Below are positions 12,968 through 60,725 of a stretch of 64,000 nucleotides of DNA, one piece after another. How positions within the stretch are numbered: position 1 is the stretch's first letter; each line of letters begins with the position of its first letter. The DNA is from a bacterium. Its GTDB lineage: Bacteria; Hinthialibacterota; Hinthialibacteria; Hinthialibacterales; Hinthialibacteraceae. The position numbers and the translations under genes are program-made. The notes under the pieces are model-generated. The model was given only the letters and a program-made list of their open reading frames with translations, did not search any database and was not told the origin of the DNA. The stretch spans positions 112,779 through 176,778 of the forward strand of contig CAXXSM010000076.1 of NCBI GenBank assembly GCA_963663405.2, in the 5' to 3' direction.

Positions 12968-14437
12968 ATGAGAAATTGCGCGATACTGAATCCTACACGT
13001 ATTCTTCAAGGTTCTTTTATCCTATTCATTGTTCTATTTCATTTTGTGGATGCTTCTTGTATTGAATACACAGTGAAGCAAGATGGGACGGGTGATTTCA
13101 CAACGGTTCAAGAGGCGCTGGACGCCGCGTCTTCTGGCGATGTTGTGACCGTGTCCGGCGGTTCATATGTTGAAGATGTGAGTATTGGACATTTCAACGT
13201 TCCTTCATTGAAAAAAGATAATATTACTTTCCGCGCCGCCGAGGGAGAAACCGTCGAAATTATTGCGGCCAACACCAAAAACCGGGCGGGTGGATTGACA
13301 CAAGCTGGATTCGATCCAGGCCCCGCCGACCGCGCCGGCTTTGTTTTGAATGGAGATAACGCTCTCATTGAAGGAATCAGATTCATCCAACCTTCCGCTG
13401 AGTTGAATAATATCGATCAAGCCTTGGCGGTTATCGTTGGCAGTTCCAATGTCACATTCCGGAATTGTGAAATTGTGGGACCTTCCCCTGATGACGGCCC
13501 CGCCTCGAATACGGAAGGGGATTTGGTTGGATTGGCCATTTCCCCGATCGACGTATTCGCGCTGAGTCAAGGAACGGGTGTACCTCCAACGAATCTGACT
13601 ATGGAAAACTGCCGGTTCCATCATGTTGAATTCGGATTCGGTACCGAAGATATGTTGAAAACGGGTTTGCCGCCTGAGACAACCTTGCGGAATTGTGAAT
13701 TTTATTACAACCGCAATGGAGTTGAAGTGAATGATGGAACTGTCCATCTGTTTGATTGTAATATCCATGACAATAGCGTCGGCGTTCAGGCCGCTGATGA
13801 CCAGGCGTTTCTCACCAATTGTGTCATTTGGAATAATGGAAGACATGGCGTGCAGCTGGATGAAGGGGAGATTGATGCGGTTGAATCCGCTCAGAATCCA
13901 ACCGTAGTTATCGATCAGTGTGAAATCAGAGACAATGGCCTGGATAATGAAGGCGCCGGAATCCAGATGGAACTCGGTACGCTGACAGTGAAAAACACGG
14001 TTCTCTCGAATAACGTGAACGGCCAAGTGTTTATCTCTTCCTCCAATAAAGGAGACTCGACGGTAACGATCGATCATTGTGATCTCTATGAATCGATTAT
14101 GGGATTCGCTATCGCGACTACGGAAGATCTGATTAGTTTAGCTGATATCACGATTACTAATTCCATTCTTGTTGATGAAATCGGCGTCATGAATAATATG
14201 GGAGTGTTAGCGGAATTTACCGTAGAGTATTGTGATTTCTTCGTGACTGACGAGCCATTTGTTGGCGCATCCATCGTTTCGAATACTATTCTAAACATAG
14301 CGCCTGGATACGTTGATGCGGAGAGTGGAGATTTTTACCTTACGCCGGATTCCCCACTGACTACGGCCGCGCAGGATGGGGAGTACATTGGATCGAAAGG
14401 CGTTAAAACGCCAGTGGTGAATTGGATGGTTCACTAA
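12968..14437 (+). CDS. Secreted right-handed parallel beta-helix protein (pectin-lyase fold)
   Basis: Signal peptide, VKQDGTGDFTTVQEALDAA start, PbH1-like repeats; ends TPVVNWMVH. Confidence 0.8.
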   Translation: MRNCAILNPTRILQGSFILFIVLFHFVDASCIEYTVKQDGTGDFTTVQEALDAASSGDVVTVSGGSYVEDVSIGHFNVPSLKKDNITFRAAEGETVEIIAANTKNRAGGLTQAGFDPGPADRAGFVLNGDNALIEGIRFIQPSAELNNIDQALAVIVGSSNVTFRNCEIVGPSPDDGPASNTEGDLVGLAISPIDVFALSQGTGVPPTNLTMENCRFHHVEFGFGTEDMLKTGLPPETTLRNCEFYYNRNGVEVNDGTVHLFDCNIHDNSVGVQAADDQAFLTNCVIWNNGRHGVQLDEGEIDAVESAQNPTVVIDQCEIRDNGLDNEGAGIQMELGTLTVKNTVLSNNVNGQVFISSSNKGDSTVTIDHCDLYESIMGFAIATTEDLISLADITITNSILVDEIGVMNNMGVLAEFTVEYCDFFVTDEPFVGASIVSNTILNIAPGYVDAESGDFYLTPDSPLTTAAQDGEYIGSKGVKTPVVNWMVH

Positions 14438-14444
14438 GAGGACA

Positions 14445-14518
14445 GTGGATCGCGTTTTAATGATCCACTTTATATATTGATCGCTCCCGGTGGGTCAATA
14501 AAGCGCGGTCTGCCCTAC
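14445..14518. repeat. Inverted pair of GTAG-type REP-like hairpins between convergent genes
   Basis: gtggatcgcgttttaatgatccac and, on the minus strand, gtagggcagaccgcgctttattgacccacc; related copy at 55164. Confidence 0.6.
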
Positions 14519-14552
14519 CGCGGCTTATTTGCGCGTTTGAATCTCAATCATT

Positions 14553-15017
14553 TCATGTGTGAAACAAGGATTGGAGGCGCGTAGGGATGAAATGGGCGAG
14601 CATGGAGCGGCGTTTTTCGCGGCGTTCTGTCGATCCATCCAAGATTGATTCCACTGCTTGCGCCATTGTTTCTATACTGATTGGCCGATGGAGCGCCGTG
14701 GGGACATTGTATCGTTTTAATCGATTCATCTCCTCTTGTGTGATCGAGGAGTAGATCGACAGAATCCTCGAATATTGAAAGATTCCTTTCAGCAGCCAAA
14801 GTATATAACTGGGAGAAGAGACAGTATCGCTCTGTCCCAAAATGCAGAGATCATAGTTTTTGTACCGCGCGTGGTTCCATAAATCCAGATCATCACTTGC
14901 CGTTATAATTGTACCGTTCTGATTGGATACAATCCGTTTCAACAATGTAAGTTCTTCTGGCAGTAATCCAATAGATAGAATGCGCAACGCCTGCTCATCC
15001 TCATGAGGCATCTTCAT
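14553..15017 (-). CDS. Stand-alone atypical (pseudo-)receiver domain protein
   Basis: CheY-like pattern (RILSIG..YDLCILG..LHRPIS) with acidic pocket and phospho-Asp missing. Confidence 0.55.
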   Translation of the reverse strand: MKMPHEDEQALRILSIGLLPEELTLLKRIVSNQNGTIITASDDLDLWNHARYKNYDLCILGQSDTVSSPSYILWLLKGIFQYSRILSIYSSITQEEMNRLKRYNVPTALHRPISIETMAQAVESILDGSTERREKRRSMLAHFIPTRLQSLFHT

Positions 15018-15159
15018 ATTCACCTCCGTGAGTATACGATTCTCTCAATCACGTATTCAAATGGAGCGCGGCGCCAGCGTCCATTCTTTACTGAATTAGT
15101 AGCACAATTTTATTGGATTGTCATTTCAGGAAAGGAAAATGTTGGAAACGGATGTGGTA

Positions 15160-16107
15160 TTATAGAAACCTCAATCCTTCTTCCTTGCCCACAGAGCGGA
15201 TATGTTGGGCTGCTTGGTTATATTCTTCGGCTGTGCTTAAGTGTTCCAGCATCAAGGGAACGCCATCTAGTTTGCTCAATTCTTTTAAGTATACGCCATA
15301 ATCGAGATAGCCCAGACCAGGACGAATTTCATCCAGGTGAACGGTGAGTTGCTGACGCATAATGATGTCTTTCGCATGGCAGCTTTTTAAATAGGGACCA
15401 AGTTTCATAAAACACTCGCGGATCAGCGCGGCGTTGCTGTAATACCGGCGTGGGCTGTTGACGATGTTGACGGGATCGAGGTGGGCTGCGCAGGCTTTGC
15501 GGTCTATGGCGTGAATCAGGCGAAGATAGGAATCGGGGGAATCGGGAAAAGCGTATGGCATCGTCTCTAACGCGTAAACCGTGCGTTTCGGTTCTACGGC
15601 GTCAATGATTTCACGGACCGACTCAACGATTTTGTCGAAGGTCTCTTGGCTTAGATTATCTGGATGATGCCCATCCCACTTTTCTCCAACCGAGCCGCTG
15701 ATGTTGACGCAGCATTCCGCGCCGATCCGGTCCGCGAGATCCAATTGTTCTTTGCATTTTTTCAGCGCGGCGTTTCGTTTTGTTTCATCGGGATCGAGGG
15801 GATTACTCCAGGCTCCCACTTCGGCGATGATGATATTGGCTTCTTTGGCGGCTTTGGCGTAGGCTTGGACGATGTCATCGCTTTGCTGAGCGTTGACGGG
15901 GCAGTACGCCGCGCTGTAGCCCAGGCGTTTCATGATCGCCACCCATTCGTCCGGTGAGTTATATTTTTCCATCGGCGGCCCTCCCAGCCGGATGGGATTG
16001 GCCTGGGCGGCCATGGCGCGCCGATGAGACGATGCGGTAAATAGAGTGGCGCCGAGTATGGATAATTTTGCGAAACGGCGTCTTGATACGGATTTTTCTT
16101 GACTCAC
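15160..16107 (-). CDS. Tat-exported sugar phosphate isomerase/epimerase (TIM barrel)
   Basis: SRRRFAK Tat motif; ALETMP, HLDPVN, CHAKD, LMLEH. Confidence 0.85.
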   Translation of the reverse strand: MSQEKSVSRRRFAKLSILGATLFTASSHRRAMAAQANPIRLGGPPMEKYNSPDEWVAIMKRLGYSAAYCPVNAQQSDDIVQAYAKAAKEANIIIAEVGAWSNPLDPDETKRNAALKKCKEQLDLADRIGAECCVNISGSVGEKWDGHHPDNLSQETFDKIVESVREIIDAVEPKRTVYALETMPYAFPDSPDSYLRLIHAIDRKACAAHLDPVNIVNSPRRYYSNAALIRECFMKLGPYLKSCHAKDIIMRQQLTVHLDEIRPGLGYLDYGVYLKELSKLDGVPLMLEHLSTAEEYNQAAQHIRSVGKEEGLRFL

Positions 16108-16140
16108 GATCGTGTATCCTTTCGTTTATGATAATTGAGT

Positions 16141-17052
16141 TTACATACGCTGACAGTATTCTTTCCATACCTTCAGTGAGCGTTCCATTTTGCCTGTGAT
16201 GTCTCCTTCGAAACCATATCCTTGGAAACCGAATGGGCCTGTATATCCAAGGCGGATGAAGGTTCTGACGAAGGCTTCAGTGTCGTAGTCTCCTTCGCCG
16301 AGAGGCAGGATGCCATCCGTCACCTTTAATTCCGAGGCGTTTTGGAGGGAACCGTTAATTGTGACGCAATTCAATTTCGGGAGCGCGAGTTTTGCTTTCT
16401 TCTCCAGGTCTTTGGGGCCTTCCACATACAGCCAGTGGAAGAGATTGAACGTGCATCCCAGATTTTCCCGGTCCACGTGAAGCGCCAGGCGCAGCGCGTC
16501 TCCTATTCGTTCCGCCCAGAAATTGCAATGGGGGTAGATTGAGATCCGTAGCCCATTTTCCTTGCCGAGATCCGCCGCTTCCCGGAGAATGGGGATCGCC
16601 AGTCTGTCTCCCGCGGGATCGGAGGATTTGTATTTCCGGCTTATTAGTGAGATCCAAAGGATCGCCCCGCTGCCTTTTAACAATCCAATCAGGTCTTTGA
16701 TCCATTGGGGGAGGATTCCCGCATCGATCTCGATTGTGGAATAGACCGTGATTAGATCGATCCCTTTCCGCTTCATTGTTCGCAATGACTCCGGGAATTC
16801 TTTAAAACGTTTCTCGTCATTTCCAATGGTATAGTCATAGCGGGGATTCCCGATGCGTTGAAGCCAATCGGCGATTTGCGCGGCGCTTAAATCGCTTTTG
16901 AAGAATCCAGCGCTCATGATAAAAAAGCGGTCACAGAGGGGAACGACTGTTTCTTTGGCTTTGGACGCTGGCGGCGCCCAGACGGTAGCGGCGAGTCCCG
17001 ATCCAGCGAGCAGCGATGTTCGCAAAAATTGACGGCGCGGTTGTTGATTCAT
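16141..17052 (-). CDS. Tat-exported sugar phosphate isomerase/epimerase-like TIM barrel
   Basis: MNQQPRRQFL Tat start; IYPH, FNLFHW, PLGEG, GYTGP. Confidence 0.8.
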   Translation of the reverse strand: MNQQPRRQFLRTSLLAGSGLAATVWAPPASKAKETVVPLCDRFFIMSAGFFKSDLSAAQIADWLQRIGNPRYDYTIGNDEKRFKEFPESLRTMKRKGIDLITVYSTIEIDAGILPQWIKDLIGLLKGSGAILWISLISRKYKSSDPAGDRLAIPILREAADLGKENGLRISIYPHCNFWAERIGDALRLALHVDRENLGCTFNLFHWLYVEGPKDLEKKAKLALPKLNCVTINGSLQNASELKVTDGILPLGEGDYDTEAFVRTFIRLGYTGPFGFQGYGFEGDITGKMERSLKVWKEYCQRM

Positions 17053-17231
17053 TGGATTCGATCTCCCTGTTTTTTGTCGATTGCCTTGTTCATAATGACT
17101 CAATATACCATAGGAAAAACGAGAAAAACAATAGCTGGAATCGATCGATGTTTTTTCCTTGCTTTTCACACAACCTTTTTTGATCGTTCACCGTTAAAAT
17201 AGTAATGCGATTGAGTCTGGTGGAGGTATTC

Positions 17232-19040: not shown

Positions 19041-19056
19041 GGCTCAATTTTATTCT

Positions 19057-29511: not shown

Positions 29512-30054
29512 TTAAAATCCCAGTTCGTAAATATCCCCGATGCTTACCAAACCATTCGAGCTGTCATATTCCATATGAATACCAAGCGCTCCTTCCGCTG
29601 TGCTGGGTTCGTATAATCCATTCGGGGCGGCTCCTAATAAGATATACGTTCCTTTGGCGTCGCGTACGCGTGGCATATGATCAAATTCTCCTCCATCCCG
29701 TTTTCCATCCGCTACATCAATCGGCCAATAGGGGTAGACATCTCCATCCCGATCCGTGAGTCCTTTGGGGCGGAACGGATCGTAGGGGATTGAGGAGAGG
29801 TAGGGAGTGGGTGTGGTGAGGCGGATCAGGCGGGTTAAGCGTCCTGAAATGCCTGGTGAGTAGGACGGGTATTCGTTGTTATCGAGCCGATATTGCGCCA
29901 ATCCCATTTTGATGGCGCGCATGTCGGATACGCTCCGGGCGACTTTAGCGCGGATTTGCGCGTTCAGAAAATTGGGGACGGCGATCGCCGCCAGAATCCC
30001 AATAATAGCCACGACAATCAGAAGTTCGATCAATGTGAATCCGTTTGCTTTCAT
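29512..30054 (-). CDS. Prepilin-type protein #4
   Basis: MKANG|FTLIELLIVVAIIGILAAIAVPNFLNAQIRAK; LTTPTPY; YDSSNGLVSIGDI. Confidence 0.9.
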   Translation of the reverse strand: MKANGFTLIELLIVVAIIGILAAIAVPNFLNAQIRAKVARSVSDMRAIKMGLAQYRLDNNEYPSYSPGISGRLTRLIRLTTPTPYLSSIPYDPFRPKGLTDRDGDVYPYWPIDVADGKRDGGEFDHMPRVRDAKGTYILLGAAPNGLYEPSTAEGALGIHMEYDSSNGLVSIGDIYELGF

Positions 30055-30085
30055 GTTTTCACCTGATAGTGTACCGGGATCGAGG

Positions 30086-30301
30086 TAGTATACGTATACA
30101 TTTTTTTGTGATTTTATCCATTTGTCAAGAGAATCTATCACAATTTTATGAAGAAAATATTAAAAAAGAAATTTCTTGGGATCAATTGGTTTTTTAACGT
30201 ATACATGCCTTTGTATCAGAATTATTTTGGATATTTTATTTCCTGTTTTTGGAAAACAATGGTTGACGGGGTAGGCAAGAGTGTGAATAATACGTATACT
30301 A
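30086..30301. promoter_or_regulatory. Divergent promoter region with three ACGTATAC operator sites
   Basis: GTATACGTATAC 30088-30099 (perfect palindrome), TAACGTATACAT 30195-30206, TAATACGTATACTA 30288-30301; TTGACG-17-AATAAT on +, TTGACA at 30128 on -. Confidence 0.7.
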
Positions 30302-30359
30302 AAAATGCTTTAAATATTCTATGAAGGACCAAATTCTATCCAGAAAGGGTGAACTCAAA

Positions 30360-31832
30360 ATGATGGGGCTGAAAAAGGGATTTGGATTGTTGATTTTAGG
30401 GCTGCTTGCCGTGAATGTTGGGCTGGCTCAAGAGTGGAGCGCCGTGTATACGGAGGATTTTGAAGCGGCCGCTGTTGGGGAGAAGCCCGAAGGCTGGACC
30501 GGTGGCGATGGGGACGATACGGATGATGTCAGCATCTTTTGGGAGGTCTCCGATTTCGTGGGTTTTGATAACGAGCCATCCGGAACCACGCATAATCTGT
30601 CCATCGGTGACGACAGCGATCAAGGAAACGCCGTCATTGCCATGCCGTTTCCGGCGCAAACGGAAAACTTCAAATTGACGATTTACGTAGGAAACAATCG
30701 TCCAGGAAGTTCGTTTCTGCGAATCGCTTTGGGCGATTCGGAGGATGGCGGTCTTGATGGCGCGGGAAAATTGGGAATCGGGTATTTGAATATGAACATG
30801 AATACAACAAATGGCCTGCTTCCCAACTTCAACAGCGCTGTGGATGGGATCACTCTCCCTCATGGCAATGCGGCGCTGCATAAAGTGGAATATTACGTGG
30901 CCCGGAATGAGGAGAATACCGCGTATACACTCGCCGCCGTTACGATCGATGACATTGCGGTTCTGCCCGCCACGCCAACGGAGAATGCGCGTACTCAGTT
31001 GAATCTAATGTATTTAATAACAAGCACCAGCGGGACCAATGTCGATCTCACAATTGATGATATCACCATTGAAGTGGGTGGTTCTGGAATCGAAGCGCCG
31101 CCTGATATGGAATTCACGCCATCGGATACCGTTTATGAAGAAACCTTTGAATCCATCGATTTGAATGGTGTTCCAGAGAATTGGACGCCGGGCGATGGCG
31201 ATGATTCCGATGGTTCGGTTGTGGTTTGGGGCGTGTCGGATATGACTGATTTTGAGGGAATCCCGGATGGTTCCACGAAAACGATGTATCTCCTAGATGA
31301 ATTCGATAGCGGGAACATTATCGCTGAAGTGGCGATCGACGCGCAGGACGCTCCCATCCGTTTTAGTTTTTATGTGGGGACAACGGAAACCAGTGAAGGA
31401 GATGAAGACGATGATACTGTGCGCGTGGCTATGGGGGATAGCGCCGATGGAGGCATCGCATCAAGTGGAAAGGATGGGATCGGATTTTTGGATGTCACGT
31501 TCCGGCCAATCACGGGGGATCTGAAACTGGATTTTAGTAATACGGAACATCCATCCGGATTTACTGTGCCTCATGCGGATGGGCAGATGCATTTGATAGA
31601 ATACGTTGTCTTCCGGAATGAGGATGGTACCGCGTATGAAATGCGCAAAGCGTTTGTTGATGGCGTCGAGGCCTATCCGTTGTCCTATGTGGAATTCCAG
31701 CGCGCACAGATCGATCTGCTTCGTTTCATCACCTATACCGGTGGATTTCATCATATTTATTTAGATGATGTGCGTGTTGAAATTGGCTCCCAGGCAAAAT
31801 TGACGGAAATTGTGAATTGGAGTTTGTTCTAG
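30360..31832 (+). CDS. Secreted acidic protein with two tandem homologous beta-sandwich-like domains
   Basis: Signal peptide; VYTEDFE..PEGWTGGDGDD vs VYEETFE..PENWTPGDGDD; ends EIVNWSLF. Confidence 0.8.
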   Translation: MMGLKKGFGLLILGLLAVNVGLAQEWSAVYTEDFEAAAVGEKPEGWTGGDGDDTDDVSIFWEVSDFVGFDNEPSGTTHNLSIGDDSDQGNAVIAMPFPAQTENFKLTIYVGNNRPGSSFLRIALGDSEDGGLDGAGKLGIGYLNMNMNTTNGLLPNFNSAVDGITLPHGNAALHKVEYYVARNEENTAYTLAAVTIDDIAVLPATPTENARTQLNLMYLITSTSGTNVDLTIDDITIEVGGSGIEAPPDMEFTPSDTVYEETFESIDLNGVPENWTPGDGDDSDGSVVVWGVSDMTDFEGIPDGSTKTMYLLDEFDSGNIIAEVAIDAQDAPIRFSFYVGTTETSEGDEDDDTVRVAMGDSADGGIASSGKDGIGFLDVTFRPITGDLKLDFSNTEHPSGFTVPHADGQMHLIEYVVFRNEDGTAYEMRKAFVDGVEAYPLSYVEFQRAQIDLLRFITYTGGFHHIYLDDVRVEIGSQAKLTEIVNWSLF

Positions 31833-41050: not shown

Positions 41051-43585
41051 TCAATACAATCGCCAGTCATCAACGGATACCGGTAGAACGCTGTCGAGAT
41101 AGCCGCTGCGCAGTTCAACAAATTCGCGCAGGATTTGATACGAATCAACAATCTGCTGGCGCCGTCTTGATTGCGATCGATTGAGATAGTCTTCCAAGAG
41201 GGCCAAGTCGTCGAGCAGTATTCCTTCATCGCGATCTATTTCAGTCAACACAGGGGCGTCCGGAATTAGAAACTGGCGGTTCAGTTCGACTCGGAGACGT
41301 CTTAGATATTCCTCATGAATCCCCGTGTCTTTGTGGAAGAGGCCGGTGATGTCTCCAGGACGGCGTGAGCCGTGCTCCGCTTGACCATTCAGGGGAAAAT
41401 CAGGAGGCATCCGGTAGAACTGCGCGTTGCTGTCGGTGAATCCCCACGTTTTATCAAGATCCCAGGGGATGATTTCCCAGTGCCCACCGTCTTCTTCGGG
41501 ATTCAAGTACATCCAATTATTGTTGTGGAAACCATCCCAATTGCTGCATAGTACGGAGACGACGCTGTAGGTCAGAAATTCCTCTACATCGAGATATTTT
41601 TCGATTGCTTCACGGCGGCGGCTCGCAAGATTGGTATTCAGCGCGTTAAGGAGGGTTTGGATGCTTTCGTTCCCTTCGTCTTTATTCGTATGTTTGATGA
41701 AACCGGTGTTGTGTTCCAATTTATAAAGGTCCATACTGGAATCGCGATCATTCATCTCTAAGAATATTTCATTGACCTGCTGGACGATCAATCGCTGGGT
41801 ATGGGATTCCTGCGCCGTTCCCGGATTCTCGATGACGCGGTACCAATCAACGCGAGGCGCCAGTATTCCATTTTGACGGTAGAACCAGAATCCCAGATAT
41901 TCGCGGAAAGGCCCTGTTGGTCCAGCCGTGCCGCTGAATGAGGGCGCTTCGGGAATGATGTTGATCGTTCTGTCTCCCCGGAATTCTTCGCCTTTGTTGA
42001 ATTTGATCTTGTTCCCATTTTCGGAGCGGATATACCGGACGCCGTCGAATACTTCGAGCTGATTCCCCTCCGGAAGATATGTCACCGCCGCATCGTATTG
42101 GTTGGCGCTTTCCGGCAGGGAAGAGGAGATGGAATCGTAGATCCACAAAATTGGCAGTATTGATTCGATCTCTCCGTCAAAGACGAAATACGATTCGAAG
42201 GGATGGCGTTCCGCCTCGTGGGGGAGCCTTAGAATTTGCCCATCGGTCCGTTCAATCTCGATGTTATATCGGATCAAGGATTGAGAAGGGAAGGGAGGCA
42301 GTACGGCTTCCAGGGTTACGGAATCTATAGATCGGCCGGCGATGGTCATGGGGATTCGATCTTGGTTGTCCTGTGAGACACCGCTGGGTAATACTGTTGG
42401 GGCGAGGACAAAGTCGGTACTGTCCGATAGCCAGACGTTAAAGCCAACCAACGCGATCACGTTTTGTCCCACATGGAGTATGTTCCGGGCGTTCCCTAGT
42501 TCAATCTCTGTAAGGGTATCCGATTCATGGTTCTCGACGGCCAGTGATTCATGTGTATATGGATCCGGCGCGGTGTGGCGCGCTGCCTCATTTCCGTTAA
42601 TGTAGCAGATAAATCCATCGTCGTGATAGATACTTAGCGTCAATGCGCCTAGTGATGCGGGATCGTCTACAGTGAATTCCCGGCGGATGTAAAATGTCGT
42701 GTAGGATCCACGCATATCCGGTAATAGTGTATTTACTCGCTCGGTGTCTCCGTATCCAAAACCACCCGGCCCTTGTTCCCAGGATGAATCGTCAAAATCG
42801 AGCGATGTCCATTCCATTCCTTCGGATGGTTCTGACAGTCCCTTCCAATAGCGCCATGTGTCATTGGCGTTGATCAGGGCGTTTGGATTTGATGCTGCGC
42901 TTTTTCCCACACGTTCGTATAGAAGATAGGCGGAATTGATGATCTCCGGTGAGGAAAGACCGAACCGCGCGTGCACTTCTTCTGCTGAAGTTGGATTTCG
43001 AGGGATTCTTTCATGGGAGATAATTAAAGGGCGGGGAAGTGTTCCATCGACTGAATTACGCGCGCCAGGAGTGCCTTCATCCCGAAGCGAAGCGCGCCAG
43101 GAGTGAAAATCCCCCGCTGGCAGATCCCATGCGATCCGTTCGAGTGTGCGTCCATACCCGTCCGCTCCACGCGGCCAGGGGGAATCATCGTCGTAGCGGA
43201 AATTCTCGACTTGTGTCCCGTCCGGGCGTTGGAGAGTTAACCGTTCGCCTCCATTGGAGAGTTTTCCATCGAATGGGCCTAGGACGGAATAGGATTTATT
43301 ACGCCAAGTCCGGTGTGTGGGAACGCGGGCCACAATTAAATAGGCCCCAGCGCTCAAACTGGTTCCTTGGGGGAATGTATAGGTTACGCCGTTCGTTAAA
43401 GCGTATCCAGACAGATCCACGGCGCCCGGTCCAGGATTGTAGATCTCAATAAATTCCCGAAGTCCACCACCTTCATCCCCTTGATCAACCGGGTCGTAAT
43501 TGAGTTCGTTAATAACTACATCTCCCCATCCAATCATGGGACATACCATTAATATCGCGAATACAAACAATGGAATCCGTTTCAT
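41051..43585 (-). CDS. Secreted lamin-tail-domain + CotH kinase protein
   Basis: Signal peptide; VVINELNYDP (LTD); SNWDG, WEIIPWDLDKTWG (CotH); ends PVSVDDWRLY. Confidence 0.85.
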   Translation of the reverse strand: MKRIPLFVFAILMVCPMIGWGDVVINELNYDPVDQGDEGGGLREFIEIYNPGPGAVDLSGYALTNGVTYTFPQGTSLSAGAYLIVARVPTHRTWRNKSYSVLGPFDGKLSNGGERLTLQRPDGTQVENFRYDDDSPWPRGADGYGRTLERIAWDLPAGDFHSWRASLRDEGTPGARNSVDGTLPRPLIISHERIPRNPTSAEEVHARFGLSSPEIINSAYLLYERVGKSAASNPNALINANDTWRYWKGLSEPSEGMEWTSLDFDDSSWEQGPGGFGYGDTERVNTLLPDMRGSYTTFYIRREFTVDDPASLGALTLSIYHDDGFICYINGNEAARHTAPDPYTHESLAVENHESDTLTEIELGNARNILHVGQNVIALVGFNVWLSDSTDFVLAPTVLPSGVSQDNQDRIPMTIAGRSIDSVTLEAVLPPFPSQSLIRYNIEIERTDGQILRLPHEAERHPFESYFVFDGEIESILPILWIYDSISSSLPESANQYDAAVTYLPEGNQLEVFDGVRYIRSENGNKIKFNKGEEFRGDRTINIIPEAPSFSGTAGPTGPFREYLGFWFYRQNGILAPRVDWYRVIENPGTAQESHTQRLIVQQVNEIFLEMNDRDSSMDLYKLEHNTGFIKHTNKDEGNESIQTLLNALNTNLASRRREAIEKYLDVEEFLTYSVVSVLCSNWDGFHNNNWMYLNPEEDGGHWEIIPWDLDKTWGFTDSNAQFYRMPPDFPLNGQAEHGSRRPGDITGLFHKDTGIHEEYLRRLRVELNRQFLIPDAPVLTEIDRDEGILLDDLALLEDYLNRSQSRRRQQIVDSYQILREFVELRSGYLDSVLPVSVDDWRLY

Positions 43586-43959
43586 TGTTTCAATCTTTCC
43601 TCCGAGTATCTTTTTAAGTATATCGAAGATTGAAAGATCGTCAAAAGTATATGCTTTGGTAAACTTGCCAAAATTCATTGGGATTCTTCTAGAAGCGAAA
43701 TCAGACGCCTTGAGACCGAAATACTATGAACGGATGAACCTCTTTTTTGTCTATCTAAATATGAATGTGGCTTGATATGAATGTGGCTTGGATTGTTCGA
43801 GTGAATCGAAATCTGAATATCCCGATCAATGTGTTTGTGTATAATTTTGTAAAAAATCGAATGGTTGATACGATACGATACAATATTTTACATTGCTTTA
43901 TTGAATTAAGAATGAATGCAAATTTAATAAGACAGATTGAAATATAGGAGAGAATAATT

Positions 43960-45935
43960 ATGCGATATTCCTTTTTTTTCATTTTAACGTTCTTTTTAGC
44001 CTTCCCTGGTTTCTCGCAAACAGACGTTCCTACAATCAACGAACCGATATTAACCATTCCTTACGGTTTCGAACCGGGTGCGTTATGTTTGACTTTTTCG
44101 CCGGATGGCAAACTGCTTGCTGGTTTCGGTGATGGCGCCATAAGAATCATTCGAAGTCCAGACGTATCGTATAATGACGAAATTGTTCTGATCGATCCAG
44201 AAGCAGCTATTACAGCCATTCATCTTTCTCCAGACAATCAAATCATTATAACAGGTAATGCCAAAGGACAATTAAAATTATGGGATTTTGAAACAAACGA
44301 ATTTCTACAACAACTTGGTGAGCATGATTCTCCAATCCGGGAGGTTGCATGGTCGCCGGACGGTTCTTTCATTATTAGCGGAAGTGATAATGGTGTCGCT
44401 TTATTGTGGGATGCGAACAGTAGAACGTTACTGGAGCGATTTCCCCTATCTTCTCAAGAAATAATTGGTGTTGGTTTCTCCTCGGATAGCAGCCGTTTTT
44501 TCGCCGCATCGTCCGATGGCGTTCTTAGACTCTACGATTCGAACGATCCATCCAATCTGATTCAAGATCTTCAAACAAATATTCCAATTTATACTGCTTG
44601 TTTATCTCCGAACGCCGATCGAATTGCCGCGTGCGGTGAAGAAAAAATCTTATTATGGGAAAAAGAAACAAACGAATGGAACGATATAATCATCCGTGAA
44701 TATCAAACACCGGGCGCCGCCTGTGAATTTTCTTCGGATGGAAAAAGCCTCTATGTTGCGATGGAAAAGGCCTTCGTTTATTTTGACATTGAAACGAGAG
44801 AAAGACATGTATATTATCTTCCGGAGGATAACGATACTTGTCCTATTACCGATATGGCCGTGTCGGACCGATTTCTTGCGGATAATAGTGAGATGGTTTA
44901 TGCGCTCGCTTATCGATGCGGTAAAAGCCGCCCCGTTGAAATTCGGACGACTAAAGAAAAACAATTAGTGAGTACTCTTCGAAATCCAAGTTTTTACGGA
45001 CAACAACATATTTGCGATTTATCAGAAGATGGTTCGCAATTGCTTCTAGCGATGGGGCGCTGTAAGGATAGAAAAAATCCAAACTATTATTCTTCGATCC
45101 TTATCCGAGATCCCAACACCGGTGAAATCGTGCAAGAATTCAAAGAGCATGGTGAATGGGGAACGGGGAGTTTTTTACCAGGAAGCAAGCAATTTATAAG
45201 CGGCAGCAATCTTGGTTTGCGGTTGTGGGATATATCAAAAACAGATCCTGTGTTCTCTTATCCTGATTATACAAAGAAATCTGGGACATTGCTGTTTCTC
45301 CATCGGGAGACCGGATGGCGGCCGCTAGTTATTCAAACACACGCGATGTCGTAGACGTCTTGGATTTGACTACTGGCGAAATATATTATTCATTCAGTGA
45401 GGGAGACGATATTATAACTTCGGTTGAGTTTTCCCCCAACGGCGCATCCATTATCGCAGGTGGTTACAATAAAAAGATCTACGTTTTTAACGCTAGCGAT
45501 GGACAATTAATTCATTCGCTGGATTTGAATGATTCCTACCCAGAAATTTTTGACATTGCTTTTGCGCCTGATAGTAAAACGTTTGTTACTGCCAATAATT
45601 TCAACGATGTTTCGGCATGGGATTATGAAACAGGTGAATTGAATATCATATTTGATTTTGGTCATTACCCCTTCGCATCAGTGGAAGTGTCGCCGGATGG
45701 AAAATGGGTAGCCGTGGGTTGTCTATCTGTCTATCCGGTATTTATCGGTGATATGAACACGGGTAAATTGATTGCAAAATTGGAGGGCGGTCAGGATTCG
45801 GTCCAAAGCATTAAATTTTTCCCCGGCGGGAATAGACTCGTCACCTCTGCGGCGGACGGTTCCGCGATGATTTGGGATTTAAATGGACTCTTATCCTCCT
45901 CTAATGTTGAAAATTGGGATCTGTATGATAAATAA
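43960..45935 (+). CDS. Secreted WD40-repeat protein, split by a frameshift near 45273
   Basis: Many FSPDG..LWD repeats; one extra A in acaaag restores KEIWDIAVSPSG; ends NVENWDLYDK. Confidence 0.85.
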
Positions 45936-48498: not shown

Positions 48499-50070
48499 AT
48501 GCGGTATACAAGTATCTTCATATTAATCGGCGCAGTGCTAATGGGGATTGTCATGCCCAAAGCGGGCTTGTGCCAGGACAATGTGTCTGAATTAGAGAAG
48601 AAAGTCCAAGCGTTGGAGAGTCAATTGAATGAAATGAAAGCGGCGCTGGATGAGTTAAAGCAAGAGAAGGCGGCCGCGCCCGCCGTGGCGGCTCCGGCTG
48701 AAGGGCAGATGCAACTGGTCGGTCCGGGTGGAACGTTGCGGGTCGGTGGTGATATCCGTCTGCGCGGACTCTTTTTCGATAACGTCTGGAATTATGACAA
48801 TGCGAATGACACGGATCAACGGGAAGTCTTCCGGTTCCGTCCCCGCGTCTTCTTTGATTGGAAACCGACGGACGATATGGAAGCGTACGTTCGTATGACC
48901 AAGGAATGGTTCTATGGGCAGGATGAAGAAATGCCCGGTTATGACGTCGAAGGTAAAGACGTTGCTTTTGACAGCGCGTGGTTTGAAGTCAAGAACATGT
49001 TGAATACCGGCTTTACCCTCAAAGCAGGGCGGCAGGATTTGATCTACGGCGAAGGATTGGTGCTTCTCGATGGCACGCCTTACGATGGATCACAGACCAT
49101 CGGATTCGACGCGATCAAATTGACCTACCCGCACGAATGGGGTACCACCGATCTCATTTACTCCAAACTGCATGAAAATAACGCCGATATGGCGGATGAT
49201 GAAGATCTTTATGGGATTTACAATAAACTGAAGTTTGGAAACACGGGAGTCGAACCCTACCTGCTTTACCGCAACAAGAATCTCGATGCGGATAAAGGCG
49301 TCAATCTGATTGCCGGCACAAATATCTTTTCCGGCGCGAATTATGTGTTTGGAGAGTCGCTGGATCCATCCCCTGGCGAAGAAACTGTTTTGCTGGGCAC
49401 ACGGTTGACTCATATGTTTGAATTAAATGACGATGGCATGACCTTATCCCTTGGCGCTGAAGGAGGGAAGGAATGGGGAACCGTCGATTTTACCGGATCG
49501 GGAAATCTGCCCGGCGCGTTCCAATTTAACCGTTTCGCAGGGGACAACCGGGTCGATCGAGACGCATGGGCTGGGTACCTTCATGGAACGCTGGCGTTCA
49601 ACAACGCGCCCTGGAAACCCAGTTTCAAAGCCGCGGTTTCGTACTTCTCCGGTGACGATCCTGATTCCTCCGATTATGAAGGATGGGATGACTTCTACGG
49701 CCAGTGGCCGAAGTACAGCGAATTGTACGTATATTCGCTCTATGACGGATTCAAAAGCCGCACAGGCGCGAACGATCCCGACGTGGGCGTCTGGTCGAAT
49801 ATGATTATTCCAGAAGCGATGATCACTGTGAAACCGACGGAAAAATACACCCAATCGCTGCGGTACCTCTATTACCTGGCGGATGAGAAGAACAGCCTGG
49901 TGAATAATGGAGACGAACGGGGCCACAATCTTCAGTGGCTTTCTCAATATGTCTTCAACAATAACTTGAGCGGTCACTTCTTGGCGGAATGGTTTGCGCC
50001 GGGTGATTTTTATGCGGACGATGCGGACGACGCCTTCTTTGTCCGGTTCGAGTTAATGTACAAATTTTAA
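48499..50070 (+). CDS. Outer-membrane beta-barrel, alginate-export (AlgE-like) family
   Basis: Signal peptide, coiled coil, KAGRQDLIYGEG, FDAIK, YFSGDD, terminal ELMYKF. Confidence 0.8.
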   Translation: MRYTSIFILIGAVLMGIVMPKAGLCQDNVSELEKKVQALESQLNEMKAALDELKQEKAAAPAVAAPAEGQMQLVGPGGTLRVGGDIRLRGLFFDNVWNYDNANDTDQREVFRFRPRVFFDWKPTDDMEAYVRMTKEWFYGQDEEMPGYDVEGKDVAFDSAWFEVKNMLNTGFTLKAGRQDLIYGEGLVLLDGTPYDGSQTIGFDAIKLTYPHEWGTTDLIYSKLHENNADMADDEDLYGIYNKLKFGNTGVEPYLLYRNKNLDADKGVNLIAGTNIFSGANYVFGESLDPSPGEETVLLGTRLTHMFELNDDGMTLSLGAEGGKEWGTVDFTGSGNLPGAFQFNRFAGDNRVDRDAWAGYLHGTLAFNNAPWKPSFKAAVSYFSGDDPDSSDYEGWDDFYGQWPKYSELYVYSLYDGFKSRTGANDPDVGVWSNMIIPEAMITVKPTEKYTQSLRYLYYLADEKNSLVNNGDERGHNLQWLSQYVFNNNLSGHFLAEWFAPGDFYADDADDAFFVRFELMYKF

Positions 50071-51490: not shown

Positions 51491-51520
51491 GAAGGTAGGG
51501 GTGTGACGCGCCCCTACCTT
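51491..51520 (+). terminator. Hairpin after the binding-protein gene
   Basis: aaggtagggg-tgtgacgcg-cccctacctt. Confidence 0.55.
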
Positions 51521-51553
51521 TCCACTGCTATGTGGTTTGGAGATTCATCCAGT

Positions 51554-52453: not shown

Positions 52454-52501
52454 CTGAATAGCCAAAATGAAATGGTATGGACATCGCACAAAATAGAGAT
52501 T

Positions 52502-52543
52502 GGGTAGCGAGGGCAAGGTTTTATTCTGCCCTCGCATAATTCC
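52502..52543. repeat. Dispersed REP/MITE-like element copy C (inverted)
   Basis: gggtagcgagggcaaggttttattctgccctcgcataattcc is the reverse complement of the copy B core with stem changes. Confidence 0.7.
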
Positions 52544-52653
52544 TATGAACGTTAAACGCATTTGCAGTTGTGGTCTTAATCATGATTGTTTGAATGAACT
52601 GTGAGTAATGCGTAGTCCATCATTTATTAATTAGAATTGGATTTGCTGAATCA

Positions 52654-54420: not shown

Positions 54421-54421
54421 C

Positions 54422-55156: not shown

Positions 55157-55163
55157 TAGTCCC

Positions 55164-55193
55164 GTAGGGTGGATCGCGTCTTTATGAGGCGCC
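55164..55193 (+). repeat. Single GTAG-type REP-like copy
   Basis: gtagggtggatcgcgtctttatgaggcgcc, related to 14445-14518. Confidence 0.5.
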
Positions 55194-55252
55194 GTGTCTG
55201 CTCAACTTCGCTACATGACTGCATGTCAAATCTTTTTGGATAGGAGCGTATC

Positions 55253-56548: not shown

Positions 56549-56576
56549 CCCTCTTACGCTTGATGATACGTCTTTT

Positions 56577-58616
56577 TTAATAAATCTCCCAATTTCGAAC
56601 AGGAACGGGCAGTTCCGGCTGTGCCAAAAGGAACTCGCGGCGGAGGCGGATGAAGGTTCGCATGGTTTCGGACGCGTCTTCTATTTGTTCCCGGCGGTCG
56701 TTTCTTTTTCTTCCGATGGTCTCTTCCAGGAGGGCCAAGTCTTGGAGGAGGAGTGTCTCGGTTGCGTTGATTGTGCCGATCATTCGTTCTTCGGAGAAAC
56801 GTCCATCAAGGGCTTCCCGGACGCGCCGTAGATACTCCGCATTCAATTCCGCGTCTTTGTGTACTGCTCTCGATACCGGTCCTGGTGTGCGCGCGGCCAA
56901 GTCGGCGCGGCCATCGAGTGGGAATGCAAGGGGCATCTCTACAAACATTGTGCTGTGGGGAGGATACCCGTCAGTGTAGCCGAAGGTTTTATCCAGGTCC
57001 CAGGGAACGCATTCCCATTTATCGACGGGCTGGGGGGAATGAACGAGAAACATATTGTTGAAAAATCCATCCCAGTTGCTCAGCAATACTCCAGCGACAG
57101 AATAGTTGATAACTTCATCCACATTAAGATAAAGACGCAGCGCGCGAGCGCTTTCATCACTGTCCGCGCTGTTGATGGTTCGGATGAATTCGTATAAATC
57201 TTCGTTTCCTTCATCAAGGTTGGTTTTCTTCGCGTAATGAATATTACTCATACCGGGTATGGAATTAGATTCATTGTAGGCGATTTTATAGATGTTGCTG
57301 TTGGGATCGCGGTTGTTTAGTTCGAGAAAACATTCGTTGGGTTGTTGTGTGACGGCCCGTTGGGTGTGCTCGCTTCCTTCGATCGCCCGATACCAATCGC
57401 AGCGGGGAGTCAACACATCGAAATCCTGGAAAATCCAGAGTCCCATCTGTTCGGTGTGGGAAGTCTGCGGACCGCCTGAATTGGGATGGGTCGACACTTC
57501 GGGGCCGATATTGATCGTACGGTCGCCCCGGTATTCTTCGCCTTTGAGAAACTTGACTTTCAATCCGCTGTTGTCAACAAGTGAGGATTCGATTCGCGTT
57601 CCGTCGTAGAGTTCTATGGTTTCCGATTCTACCGGCTTGACCGCGACGCCCCTGATGGCCATCGAATCAACATGAAGGCGTGTGAAGACATAAGGAAAAA
57701 TCCAGAGAATGGGCAGTAAGGAGGGGATTTCGTTGTCATACACAAAATAGGATTCAAAGGGCCGGGGCGCCATACGATCGGGAAGCCGTAAAGTCTTTCC
57801 ATCTACCCTCTCGATGTTGAAATTGAACCGGACCAGCGTCTGCGAGGGCTGCGGGGGGAGCGCCGCCTGGTATACCGCCGATTCTGGATTCTTACTGTTC
57901 AATTCCATCGGAATGCTCAAAGGGGATTCACTACTTGATAAAAAGACGGTCTCATACCGGAGTTCCACTTGTTGGATTGTGTCCGGTGTGTCTAAGGAGA
58001 CGTGGATTTCCACGTCATCAAGAGAGGTTGGATGTTCCGGCCGGATTTCGAAGGAGACGATCGCGGGCCGATCCAACGTATCGATGACGGTGTTTTCCGC
58101 TTGGGGGGAGCCACCGCTCCGGTTGCGGGAGGCTTTCCACGAATGATAATCATCGGAAGGTAAATCGGGAGAGATCCGTTCCAGCGAAGGGCCGTATCCA
58201 TCCGCCCCGCGCGGCCAAGGATCGAAATCACAATAGGTAAGCCGGTCGATTTCGTGTCCATCCGGCGAACGGAGGACAATCTCTTCGCCTTGGTCCGATA
58301 ATTTTCCTATATAGGGGCCCATTTTGATTCTACTGAACTGGTTCCAATGCGTGTCAGATGGATTCTTAACAACCAATAGATATCCTTGCGCAGGAATCGA
58401 AGAGCCTTCAGGAAAAGCATACTCTATCCCTTCAATAAACGCGTAACCGGATAGATCAATTGTGGATCGAGTGGGATTGTATAATTCTATAAATTCATAA
58501 AGACTTTCATCCGGTGGATTGTATTGAATTTCGTTGATCACAACGTGATCCACTGCGAAAGAAAGCAACGGTTCCATCATAATTAACAGCGCAATCGGCC
58601 ATCGATTGAAAGACAT
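56577..58616 (-). CDS. Secreted LTD + CotH kinase protein (tandem copy 1)
   Basis: VVINEIQYNP, SNWDGFFNN, PWDLDKTFG; ends PVRNWEIY. Confidence 0.85.
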   Translation of the reverse strand: MSFNRWPIALLIMMEPLLSFAVDHVVINEIQYNPPDESLYEFIELYNPTRSTIDLSGYAFIEGIEYAFPEGSSIPAQGYLLVVKNPSDTHWNQFSRIKMGPYIGKLSDQGEEIVLRSPDGHEIDRLTYCDFDPWPRGADGYGPSLERISPDLPSDDYHSWKASRNRSGGSPQAENTVIDTLDRPAIVSFEIRPEHPTSLDDVEIHVSLDTPDTIQQVELRYETVFLSSSESPLSIPMELNSKNPESAVYQAALPPQPSQTLVRFNFNIERVDGKTLRLPDRMAPRPFESYFVYDNEIPSLLPILWIFPYVFTRLHVDSMAIRGVAVKPVESETIELYDGTRIESSLVDNSGLKVKFLKGEEYRGDRTINIGPEVSTHPNSGGPQTSHTEQMGLWIFQDFDVLTPRCDWYRAIEGSEHTQRAVTQQPNECFLELNNRDPNSNIYKIAYNESNSIPGMSNIHYAKKTNLDEGNEDLYEFIRTINSADSDESARALRLYLNVDEVINYSVAGVLLSNWDGFFNNMFLVHSPQPVDKWECVPWDLDKTFGYTDGYPPHSTMFVEMPLAFPLDGRADLAARTPGPVSRAVHKDAELNAEYLRRVREALDGRFSEERMIGTINATETLLLQDLALLEETIGRKRNDRREQIEDASETMRTFIRLRREFLLAQPELPVPVRNWEIY

Positions 58617-58691
58617 ATATTTTGACTCCTAATAGTGAGTTTTCCTTTTGATGATTATATCGTATGGGAGAGGCGCGCTGAAATGGAATGA

Positions 58692-60725
58692 TTAGTAAAT
58701 CTCCCAATTTGATACGTGTACGGGGAACTGTGGTTGTTTTAAAAGGTATTCCCGGCGAAGACGGATAAACGTTCGCATGGATTCAGATGCGTTTTCGATT
58801 TGCTCCCGGCGATCGTTTCTTTTTCTTCCAATCGTCTCTTCCAGGAGCGCCAAATCTTGTAGAAGGAGTGCTTCGGTTTCATTTATTTGTTCGATTATAC
58901 GTTCTTCGGAGAAGCGTCCATTGAGCGCTTCCCAGACGCGTGTTAAGTATTCATCATTCAGTTCCGGATCTTTGTGAAGCGGTCCTGATATGGGGCCTGG
59001 GGCATTTGTCCAGGGGTGGCCTTCCTTAGGAAAAATGAGGAACATTTCCACGAGTGTTTTATTAACGGGTTTGTCTCCGTCTGTGTTTCCAAAGGTTTTA
59101 TCTAAATCCCAAGGAACGCATTCCCATCGATCGATGGGAGGGGGAGGGTGGACGAGAAACATATTATTGAAGAATCCATCCCAATTACTAAGCAAAACAC
59201 CTGCTACTGAATAGGATATGACTTTATCCAAATCAAGATATTTGCGAAGCGCCTGAGCGCTTTCTTCCCTGTTTACGTTATTGATCGCGTTGAAAAATTC
59301 ATATAAATCATCGTCTCCCTCATCAAGGTTTGTTTTCTTTGCATAATAAATCCGCTTCAGGCCGGGAAAGGGATGGGATTCGTTATACGCTATTTTATAG
59401 ATGTTGCTGTTGGGATCGCGGCCGTTCAGTTCGAGAAAGCGTTCGTTGGGTTGCTGAGTGATGGCCCGTTGAGTATATGCGCCGTCTTCGATTACGCGAT
59501 ACCAATCGCAGCGGGGAGCCAGTACACCGAAATCCCTAAAAATCCGAAATCCCATTTGTTCGACATGAGAGGTCTGAGGACCGCCTGAATTGGGATGGGT
59601 CGACACTTCAGGGCCGATGTTGATCGTCCGGTCACCCCGGTATTCTTCGCCTTTGAGAAACTTGACTTTCAATCCGCTGTTGTCAACGAGTGAGGATTCG
59701 ATCCGCGTTCCGTCGTAGAGTTCTATGGTTTCCGATTCTACCGGCTTGACCGCGACGCCCCTGATGGCCATCGAATCAACATGAAGGCGTGTGAAGACAT
59801 AAGGAAAAATCCAGAGAATGGGCAGTAAGGAGGGGATTTCGTTGTCATACACAAAATAGGATTCAAAGGGCCGGGGCGCCATACGATCGGGAAGCCGTAA
59901 AGTCTTTCCATCCACCCTCTCGATGTTGAAATTGAACCGGACCAGCGTCTGCGAGGGCTGCGGGTGGAGCGACGCCATGTATACCGCCGATTCTGGATTC
60001 TTACTGATTAAATCCATTGGAATGCTCAAAGGAGACTCACTACTTGATAAAAAGACGGTCTCATATCGGAGTTCCACTTGTTGGATTGTGTCCGGTGTGT
60101 CTAAGGAGACATGGATTTCCACGTCATCAAGAGAGGTTGGATGTTCCGGCCGGATTTCGAAGGAGACGATCGCGGGCCGATCCAACGTATCGATGACGGT
60201 GTTTTCCGCTAGGGGGGAGCCATCGTTCTGATTGCGGGAGGCTTTCCACGAATGATAATCATCGGAGGGTAAATCGGGAGAGATCCGTTCCAGCGATGAT
60301 CCGTATCCATCAGCCCCGCGCGGCCAAGGATCAAAATCGCTGTATGTAAGCCGGTCGATTTCGTATCCATCCGGTGAAAGGAGGACAATCTCTTCGCCGT
60401 GGTTTGATAACTTTCCAATATAGGGGCCCATTTTAATACCACTGAACTGGTTCCAATGTGTGTCAGATGGATTCTTGACAACCAATAGATATCCTTGCGC
60501 AGGAATCGAAGAGCCTTCAGGAAAAGCGAATTCGATCCCTTCAATAAACGCGTAACCGGAAAGATCAATTGTGGATTGAGTGGGATTGAATAATTCTATA
60601 AATTCATAAAGACTTTCATCCGGTGGATTGTATTGAATTTCGTTGATCACAACGTGATCCACTGCGAAAGAAAGCAGCGGTCTCATCATAATTAAAAGCG
60701 CGATCGGCCATCGATTGAAACACAT
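58692..60725 (-). CDS. Secreted LTD + CotH kinase protein (tandem copy 2)
   Basis: Near-identical N-terminal half to copy 1; ends HVSNWEIY. Confidence 0.85.
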   Translation of the reverse strand: MCFNRWPIALLIMMRPLLSFAVDHVVINEIQYNPPDESLYEFIELFNPTQSTIDLSGYAFIEGIEFAFPEGSSIPAQGYLLVVKNPSDTHWNQFSGIKMGPYIGKLSNHGEEIVLLSPDGYEIDRLTYSDFDPWPRGADGYGSSLERISPDLPSDDYHSWKASRNQNDGSPLAENTVIDTLDRPAIVSFEIRPEHPTSLDDVEIHVSLDTPDTIQQVELRYETVFLSSSESPLSIPMDLISKNPESAVYMASLHPQPSQTLVRFNFNIERVDGKTLRLPDRMAPRPFESYFVYDNEIPSLLPILWIFPYVFTRLHVDSMAIRGVAVKPVESETIELYDGTRIESSLVDNSGLKVKFLKGEEYRGDRTINIGPEVSTHPNSGGPQTSHVEQMGFRIFRDFGVLAPRCDWYRVIEDGAYTQRAITQQPNERFLELNGRDPNSNIYKIAYNESHPFPGLKRIYYAKKTNLDEGDDDLYEFFNAINNVNREESAQALRKYLDLDKVISYSVAGVLLSNWDGFFNNMFLVHPPPPIDRWECVPWDLDKTFGNTDGDKPVNKTLVEMFLIFPKEGHPWTNAPGPISGPLHKDPELNDEYLTRVWEALNGRFSEERIIEQINETEALLLQDLALLEETIGRKRNDRREQIENASESMRTFIRLRREYLLKQPQFPVHVSNWEIY

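Follow-up and report, generated by a model that had tools for sequence, protein, structure and literature searches.

The window analyzed here, a stretch of 64,000 nt (contig CAXXSM010000076.1, positions 112,779 to 176,778) from an 8.44-Mb, 170-contig genome of the phylum Hinthialibacterota with 47% GC (G000), encodes six exported proteins that end in the same short C-terminal tail, which can be written as the pattern T-[ASP]-V-x-[DN]-W-x-[LIV]-[YHF]-stop. Our results show that the recurrence of this tail is real and reaches far beyond the six window genes, with a total of roughly 160 to 190 carriers in this genome, and that prepilin-type genes are specifically enriched beside the carriers, an association that is new in this analysis. 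It is quite likely that the tail is an address label acting after Sec export. We propose more tentatively, as a reading that could well turn out wrong, that it is a short C-terminal recognition tag whose post-Sec address is read by type-4-filament machinery.

A recurring tail conserved at the protein level

In a seed search of all open reading frames (ORFs) of at least 100 amino acids (aa) in the genome (n=12670), 70 ended exactly in the core motif [ND]W.[LIVM][YFHW], and 17 more did so with one extra residue. The chance expectation was 0.6-0.7, regardless of whether it was based on the internal rate of the motif, on composition, or on shuffling the last 12 residues 200 times (at most 3 matches in any shuffle), and the reversed core motif was found at none of the 12670 ORF ends. 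A preliminary description of the window had put forward the comparison with shuffled tails as a check on its proposal, and the outcome argues against a motif restricted to a few genes.

A position matrix built from the 70 seed tails gave the consensus T/V(-9), A/S/P(-8), V/I(-7), x, D/N(-5), W(-4), x, L/I/V(-2), Y/H/F(-1). The D/N and W are present in 70/70 seeds as fixed by the choice of seeds, and T/V(-9) and V/I(-7), which lie outside the seed rule, are present in 57/70 and 65/70; L/I/V(-2) is found in 68/70, and all 70 seeds end in Y, H, or F. Counted from the end, the conserved positions are 1, 2, 4, 5, 7, and 9, which do not alternate, and the protein terminates 4 residues past the Trp. 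When applied to a greedy set of 6485 nonoverlapping genes, the matrix gave a bimodal score distribution, and 135 genes reached the carrier threshold (score of at least 8) at the exact C terminus, 65 of which were not seeds. No gene reached this score in any of the matrix controls (15 residues upstream, 40 residues upstream, and shuffled tails), and the enrichment of the tail was about 100-fold. With one extra residue allowed, the number of carriers was 159, and overall, one to three residues beyond the tail were tolerated. Within the window, the tail was confined to the six genes first named: their scores were 19 to 25, while the other 45 of the 51 genes scored -12 or lower.

The tail is conserved by selection on the protein and not on the DNA. 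All four codons are used for the conserved Val(-7) (30, 24, 22, and 21 times), the third codon positions of the tail carry almost no information, and the 30 bases 3' of the stop codon are unconserved (information content of 0.1 or less). A chance pattern, an annotation artifact, or a DNA-level repeat is hardly credible as an explanation, given the 100-fold enrichment with empty controls, the freely varying synonymous codons, the lack of conservation past the stop codon, and the presence of the tail in 32/35 genomes of the phylum. The stop codon that follows the tail was TAA in 78/121 carriers, compared to 2933/6485 (45%) background genes.

The spread of the tail was assessed in 35 species-level genomes of Hinthialibacterota, for which OLB16 is given as a synonym (PMC9324843), with the DNA pattern V-x-[DN]-W-x-[LIVMF]-[YHF]-stop and the same pattern read backwards as the control; lineage restriction was judged inside the phylum and via labeled homologues. 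There were 765 pattern hits versus 60 control hits, with an excess of at least 3-fold in 32/35 genomes. Of the tail-poor genomes, G025 (3 versus 1) and G027 (1 versus 1) were at the control level and represent two deep branches lacking the tail, while G033 (5 versus 3) was marginal. A 400-kb sample of G027 (282 genes) contained no more than one loose match, compared to the ~7 that the frequency in G000 would predict, and no other recurring C-terminal tag was seen by eye in this sample. Homologues of the window carriers mostly keep the tail: it is present in 8/8 homologues (36-54% identical) of the beta-helix carrier and in 13/16 CotH loci related to the carrier at 58692-60725 in other metagenome-assembled genomes, which are labeled "Candidatus Omnitrophota bacterium" (e.g., isolate SURF_12) or "bacterium." One homologue of L024, a carrier unrelated to the beta-helix protein, is labeled "Candidatus Hinthialibacter antarcticus."

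Carriers and the position of the tail

With their tails removed, the 159 carriers fell into 72 BLAST clusters, 52 of them singletons, and their last 100 residues fell into 87 clusters, the tail being found alike behind the helical end of CotH, leucine-rich repeat (LRR) caps, and modules resembling CBM9 or LamG. A domain scan of 46 carriers (40 representatives and the six window genes) against Pfam and NCBIfam identified CotH with LTD, LRR, Laminin_G_3, beta-helix/pectinesterase, esterase, CBM9, FGE-sulfatase, GH5, cohesin with dockerin, S8 and C1 peptidases, FG-GAP, and FlgD_ig among the Pfam families, and 23/40 representatives had no Pfam family at all. The six window genes had been described as belonging to unrelated families, and Pfam agrees, assigning one to beta-helix/pectinesterase, three to CotH with LTD, one to WD40, and one to no family. 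One 477-aa carrier is present in three near-identical copies, on contigs C86 (22958-24391), C110 (26147-27580), and C4 (79938-81371), which share neighbor genes and resemble a multigene cassette.

Signal-peptide-like N termini were found by a heuristic test in 119/145 strong carriers (82%) compared to 2412/6285 other genes (Fisher p = 2e-26), and many of the carriers missed by the test are visibly gene fragments or have uncalled signal peptides. An additional transmembrane (TM) segment was present in 3% of the carriers versus 15% of other genes, and a Tat-like N terminus and a lipobox-like N terminus were each seen in 1/159. Judged by these features, the carriers are predicted to be Sec-exported, soluble, extracellular-type proteins that are not lipoproteins, and the original claim that the tail sits on exported proteins of unrelated families extends from the window to the genome.

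In an AlphaFold model of the beta-helix carrier of the window, computed with 8 homologues, the body had a predicted local distance difference test (pLDDT) score of ~90, while residues 479-489, which include the tail, were below 50. The unrelated carrier L024 (31-row alignment) gave the same picture, with 90-97 for the body and below 50 for residues 482-487, and the final strand of the domain itself stopped at residue 477. In the two carriers modeled, the tail is thus predicted to be a disordered appendage outside the fold. The preliminary description had stated that its proposal would fall if the motif were an integral strand of the preceding domain, which is not how either carrier is predicted to fold. 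The residue pattern of the tail could form a beta-strand, which would suit a structural role, either as the terminal strand of the domain before it or as a strand for homo-oligomerization. Such a role is very unlikely, since the families that precede the tail number at least 72, are unrelated, and include CotH with its helical end, since the tail is poorly ordered beyond the last strand in the models, and since homologues fold without it and bear other modules in its place.

Such replacement is seen in the set of 54 L024 homologues, of which 30 terminate in the tail, 2 in a Leu-ending variant, and 1 in a variant with F for W. In 19/54, the shared domain end (...FW[AV]IDNV[RS]VT...) is instead followed by an unnamed module of ~65 residues that ends in [FY]YR[LV]. 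These 19 (P0036, P0041-P0044, and P0046-P0059) comprise all Verrucomicrobia-labeled hits except one partial hit. Among the 54, one homologue ends in a hydrophobic TM helix and a basic tail, and one is partial. The ~65-residue module is named by neither Pfam nor NCBIfam and could in its own right be a C-terminal domain for sorting or anchoring that has yet to be described. The domain that precedes the tail reaches the NCBIfam cutoff for choice-of-anchor J in two homologues and just misses it in L024, and another carrier has choice-of-anchor X above the cutoff. Choice-of-anchor domains are defined by the alternative sorting signals that adjoin them. From these alignments, the tail appears to occupy the slot where homologues bear other C-terminal modules. 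The idea of a split domain, with the tail as the donated last strand of the ~65-residue module, was rejected, as a hidden Markov model (HMM) of the module found 0/12670 ORFs at E <= 10.

In this genome, the tail is present on 2/3 cohesin-ended proteins and on none of the approximately 11 dockerin-ended ones, which fits the logic of anchoring scaffoldins. The genome, that of a diderm, has a cohesin/dockerin system with 10 cohesin and 18 dockerin hits above the cutoff, and a tandem array of dockerin-ended proteins is located on contig C6.

These properties bear on what we consider to be the main rival to a reading of the tail by pilins, namely, noncovalent surface docking. The tail would then be a retention tag independent of pilins that attaches carriers to a scaffold at the outer membrane or cell surface, with donor-strand complementation as one conceivable mode, and prepilins would merely be coregulated. 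It would be in keeping with docking that the tail is disordered in monomer models, as is described for the donor-strand-only subunit ElrB (10.64898/2026.10.17.759780), that other C-terminal modules stand at its position in homologues, that 2/3 cohesin-ended proteins bear it where anchoring scaffoldins have their anchor, and that conserved residues lie on both faces of the putative strand. The missing counterparts speak against it, as the HMM of the ~65-residue module had no hits in the genome and there is no PapD-like chaperone (0 hits for PapD_N). We regard docking as possible but rather doubtful, also in light of the gene neighborhoods described below.

Prepilin genes and the search for a reader

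A regular-expression search found 131 prepilin-type genes in the genome, 125 of which form one BLAST family and none of which carries the tail. Within one gene of a carrier there were 22/131 prepilins versus 6.0 expected (p = 8e-8), and within two genes there were 31 versus 11.5 expected. The 23 adjacent carrier-prepilin pairs (18 co-directional, gaps of 5-542 bp) correspond to 23/159 carriers (14.5%), compared to 54/1229 other signal-peptide-like proteins (4.4%; odds ratio of 3.7, p = 5e-6) and to 207/6195 other genes overall. Since the paired carriers span 20 clusters and the prepilins adjoining carriers have a median identity of only 33%, the pairs are not copies of one cassette. In a second genus (G015), 4/20 carriers had an adjacent prepilin gene versus 8/169 other genes of the same neighborhoods (p = 0.026), and in 6/8 genomes of different genera, a carrier of the L024 family was followed by a co-directional prepilin gene, with 5 of these 6 prepilins being clear orthologues. 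The domain for prepilin cleavage/methylation is genuine in the carrier-adjacent prepilins, which also have a GspG-like helix. Profile scans found no named family for their globular part, and the nearest ESM Atlas clusters are pilin-like.

The preliminary description had guessed that the tail binds a scaffold or a component of a type II secretion system (T2SS) or a pilus, perhaps by beta-strand addition. The enrichment of prepilins beside carriers and the one pair that is syntenic in 6/8 genomes lend indirect support to the T2SS or pilus part of this guess, while the reading of the tail by pilins is something that we only infer. In the mechanism that we have in mind, Sec would export the carrier and the signal peptide would be removed, after which the exposed tail would be read as an address label in the periplasm or at the outer membrane, and the carrier would be sent out of the cell or held on its surface. 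The reader would be a type-4-filament component, of a T2SS or pilus-like, and could be the expanded orphan prepilin-type family encoded beside carriers, on the model of TcpF and CofJ, whose export signals bind minor pilins. By analogy with these systems, reading by type-4-filament or pilin-like proteins is a tentative suggestion. It is unlikely that the tail is a general, linear, and portable export signal of the T2SS/type-4-filament pathway that is read via diversified cargo-adaptor pseudopilins.

Several observations weigh against reading by pilins and, in part, against the address label as such. The majority of carriers (85%) have no adjacent prepilin gene, which is also what docking would lead one to expect. 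The full prepilin profile matches 40-100 genes per genome, including the tail-poor ones (40 and 46), and the GspG family is present in 35/35 genomes, again including the tail-poor ones, so the presence of a T2SS was rejected as a discriminator. The globular family of the prepilins is found in all 25 genomes of the families f1-f3, and no match to this domain was found at E <= 1e-20 in the tail-bearing family f5. Counts of tails and pseudopilins were correlated before normalization (rho of 0.54), but per Mb the correlation was not significant (rho of 0.23), and there was none within f1. The carrier-adjacent prepilins are diverged and the tail is near-invariant, which argues against a simple one-to-one contact between the two. 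Furthermore, the heuristic used for signal peptides is permissive, with 38% of background genes scored as positive, and some carriers are up to 3288 aa long, an unusual size for T2SS cargo.

For surface docking, on the other hand, no acceptor was found, the enrichment of neighbors gives no other candidate, and the specific enrichment of prepilin genes is left unexplained. Besides prepilins, that enrichment returned just a cassette with three copies and a single giant family formed by single linkage, neither of which was retained. The secretion genes of this genome comprise a Tad system, additional secretins, and at least three operons of the T2SS type. Around 8 secretin loci, 128 genes were screened at E <= 1e-5 and the 16 unannotated ORFs of these loci at E <= 1, and neither screen matched a PDZ or GspC-like family. 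One orphan secretin locus (L076; G000:C18:19719-39718) encodes a secretin, a 546-aa protein with a weak WxLIP_PGBD resemblance (E = 7e-4, below the cutoff), and a 1276-aa FG-GAP/VWA protein. Close homologues of its secretin occur only in G000, G018 (44% identical), G027, and G030, and those of the 546-aa protein are confined to G000, G027, and G030, with a distant match (21% identity) in G018; in G027, both proteins are 44% identical. The locus was rejected as a reader on the basis of this patchy distribution, 4/35 genomes with the tail-poor G027 as one of them, and it appears to be accessory and possibly transferred.

The tail might also be a processing motif or a degron, recognized by a periplasmic C-terminal-processing protease (S41/PDZ type) or by an Asp/Asn-specific endopeptidase or transpeptidase. 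It would then either be lost as the protein matures or target protein that was not exported for degradation. PDZ proteases read free hydrophobic or aromatic C termini, and the tail has such a terminus, has a near-invariant Asp/Asn directly before the Trp, and occurs in a genome with seven S41 peptidase genes. However, S41 peptidases are ubiquitous, with matches in 10/14 control genomes, and therefore cannot explain a phylum-specific tag, and the only C13-like hit in this genome is marginal (22.9 bits, inside a 1619-aa ORF). The tolerance of one to three trailing residues is a poor fit to strict recognition of a terminal carboxylate, and there is no obvious rationale for a pure degron on ~2.5% of genes that are all of the extracellular type. 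Both forms of this explanation seem improbable to us. Cleavage and addressing can nevertheless be combined, since the TcpF signal is described as being clipped on secretion (PMC10120004).

The features of the window are collected in Table 1. Two of the six window carriers are flanked by prepilin genes (12127-12807 and 29512-30141). The globular domain of the prepilin at 12127-12807 is a member of the globular family searched for across the genomes (C76:125049-125510), and the prepilin in tandem with it was matched in the same search (C76:123953-124411). Both members of this tandem terminate in ...FQDYWE and belong to the ~125-gene prepilin family of the genome. The two LTD+CotH carriers at 56577-58616 and 58692-60725 are tandem paralogues with almost identical N termini, both tailed.

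Each of the six C termini was re-read from its gene as first described. The Sec signal peptide attributed to all six needs one correction, as that of the WD40 carrier is located on the upstream ORF (43960-45354) and not on the ORF with the tail. The two are separated because a one-base frameshift near 45,270-45,300 splits what is a single gene: in the window segment 45240-45420, the translation reads "...DYTKK" in one frame and "EIWDIAVSPSGD..." in the next. Either the assembly is wrong here or the gene is a pseudogene. An exported 523-aa protein at 48499-50070, likely a barrel protein, terminates in ...FELMYKF, which resembles the signal of outer-membrane beta-barrels, and lacks the tail, so the tail marks just a subset of exported proteins.

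Table 1. Tails, the split carrier gene, and prepilin-type genes in the window (positions counted from its first base; carrier families according to Pfam)
Feature	Position	Strand	Gene and family	Matrix score	Remarks
Prepilin-type gene (second)	11031..11708	+			In tandem with 12127-12807
Prepilin-type gene	12127..12807	+	TIGR02532 and N_methyl above cutoff		160-bp gap to the downstream carrier 12968-14437, co-directional
Tail TPVVNWMVH	14408..14434	+	12968-14437, beta-helix/pectinesterase-like	24.3	
Prepilin-type gene (GspG-like)	29512..30141	-	N_methyl and T2SSG above cutoff		Divergent from carrier 30321-31832, 179-bp gap
Tail TEIVNWSLF	31803..31829	+	30321-31832, 503-aa exported protein, no Pfam family	19.5	
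Tail VSVDDWRLY	41054..41080	-	41051-43678, LTD+CotH	24.9	
WD40 carrier	43960..45935	+	WD40		Signal peptide on ORF 43960-45354, tail on ORF 45315-45935
Tail SNVENWDLY	45900..45932	+	WD40 carrier	19.3 (offset 2)	Two extra residues (DK)
Tail VPVRNWEIY	56580..56606	-	56577-58616, LTD+CotH	23.8	
Tail VHVSNWEIY	58695..58721	-	58692-60725, LTD+CotH	25.1	

How folded periplasmic proteins are chosen for export is described as poorly defined for the T2SS and type IV pili (PMC10120004). Here, a nine-residue tag at a fixed position marks ~160 extracellular-type proteins per genome across a phylum whose members degrade polysaccharides, and it fits none of the known tag architectures. Provided that this tag is an address label, it would represent a new sorting system with an identifiable reader, make the exoproteome of these uncultured bacteria predictable by a simple rule, and be a candidate portable tag for secretion or display. 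Should it be an export signal of the T2SS or of type-4 filaments, it would be the first universal sequence signal for such secretion systems, present on ~2.5% of genes phylum-wide. The link to prepilins provides a concrete hypothesis that is testable with peptides and recombinant proteins and does not require culture.

Comparison with known C-terminal tags and export signals

No Pfam or NCBIfam model covered the tail in the 46 carriers scanned, and no known sorting domain was matched, which bears on the preliminary suggestion that InterPro/NCBIfam be searched for an existing model. We found no published description of such a tail in the literature searched, supplementary files aside, and the founding description of Ca. 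Hinthialibacterota (PMC9324843) has 0 mentions of "C-terminal," "sorting," or "secretion." Absent from the curated libraries and from the print searched, the tail looks like an undescribed tag, and it lacks defining features of each known architecture of C-terminal tags that was tested. The C-terminal sequences also bear out the early remark that it has no TM helix and no basic end and is far shorter than the C-terminal domain (CTD) of the type IX secretion system (T9SS).

Seven attributes of C-terminal sorting signals have been listed (10.1101/2023.06.07.544157). As these are set out there, the tail shares attributes 1, 2, 3, 6, and 7 with the tripartite signals (LPXTG/sortase, PEP-CTERM/exosortase, GlyGly-CTERM/rhombosortase, and MYXO-CTERM/myxosortase), that is, the C-terminal site, the many copies, the near-invariant residues, the signal peptides, and the unrelated carriers, but it differs from them in having neither a hydrophobic TM segment nor an Arg/Lys cluster (attributes 4 and 5). 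PEP-CTERM (TIGR02595) had no hits in G000 or in 19 other f1 genomes and was found only in f5 (7/7) and in one f2 genome. In f5 (G026, G028-G030, and G032-G034), PEP-CTERM, with 3-21 hits per genome, and the tail, with 5-22 pattern hits, coexist.

The T9SS CTD (TIGR04183/PF18962) resembles the tail in marking numerous enzymes and adhesins that a diderm exports via Sec and in that the final residues matter while short extensions are tolerated, as described for the CTD in PMC11285876. The CTD is, however, a folded Ig-like domain with a profile of ~70 positions, compared to the 9-10 disordered residues of the tail, and TIGR04183 had 0 hits in G000 and a few on short contigs in 4/35 genomes. With the beta-signal of outer-membrane proteins, which is recognized by BamA/BamD and consists of alternating hydrophobic residues, the tail shares an aromatic residue at or near the C terminus, but the conserved positions of the tail do not alternate and its carriers are beta-helix, CotH, LRR, and LamG proteins, not barrels.

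The WxL/DUF916 system (ElrA-E) of the Gram-positive Elr pilus shares with the tail a Trp-x-Leu near a C terminus, and its noncovalent surface attachment of modular payloads can be likened to what docking of the tail would achieve. The attachment strands of Elr are described as disordered when alone, with ElrB as a donor-strand-only subunit (10.64898/2026.10.17.759780). In the same account, the WxL element makes up an entire acceptor domain and the donor strands are N-terminal, unlike the C-terminal tail, and the WxL/DUF916 donor-strand system is confined to Bacillota. Here, no WxL or DUF916 Pfam hit was above the cutoff, with WxL in 0/46 carriers and a sole DUF916-like hit at E = 7e-4 that lies in a patchy locus, found in only 4/35 genomes.

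Closest to the reading by pilins that we favor tentatively are the export signals of TcpF from the TCP system of Vibrio cholerae, a portable signal that binds the minor pilin TcpB (PMC10120004), and of CofJ from the CFA/III system of enterotoxigenic Escherichia coli, a counterpart that is read by the minor pilin CofB (PMC6048534). As these systems are described there, they resemble the tail in that a short disordered terminal segment is located on a Sec-exported soluble protein, in that this segment is read in the periplasm, where the tail may be read as well, and in that the cargo gene lies near pilin genes, which for the tail applies to a minority of carriers. They differ in that the TcpF and CofJ signals are N-terminal, while the tail is at the extreme C terminus and its reading by pilins is a prediction, and in that each of those systems has one cargo, whereas here ~160 carriers share one motif.

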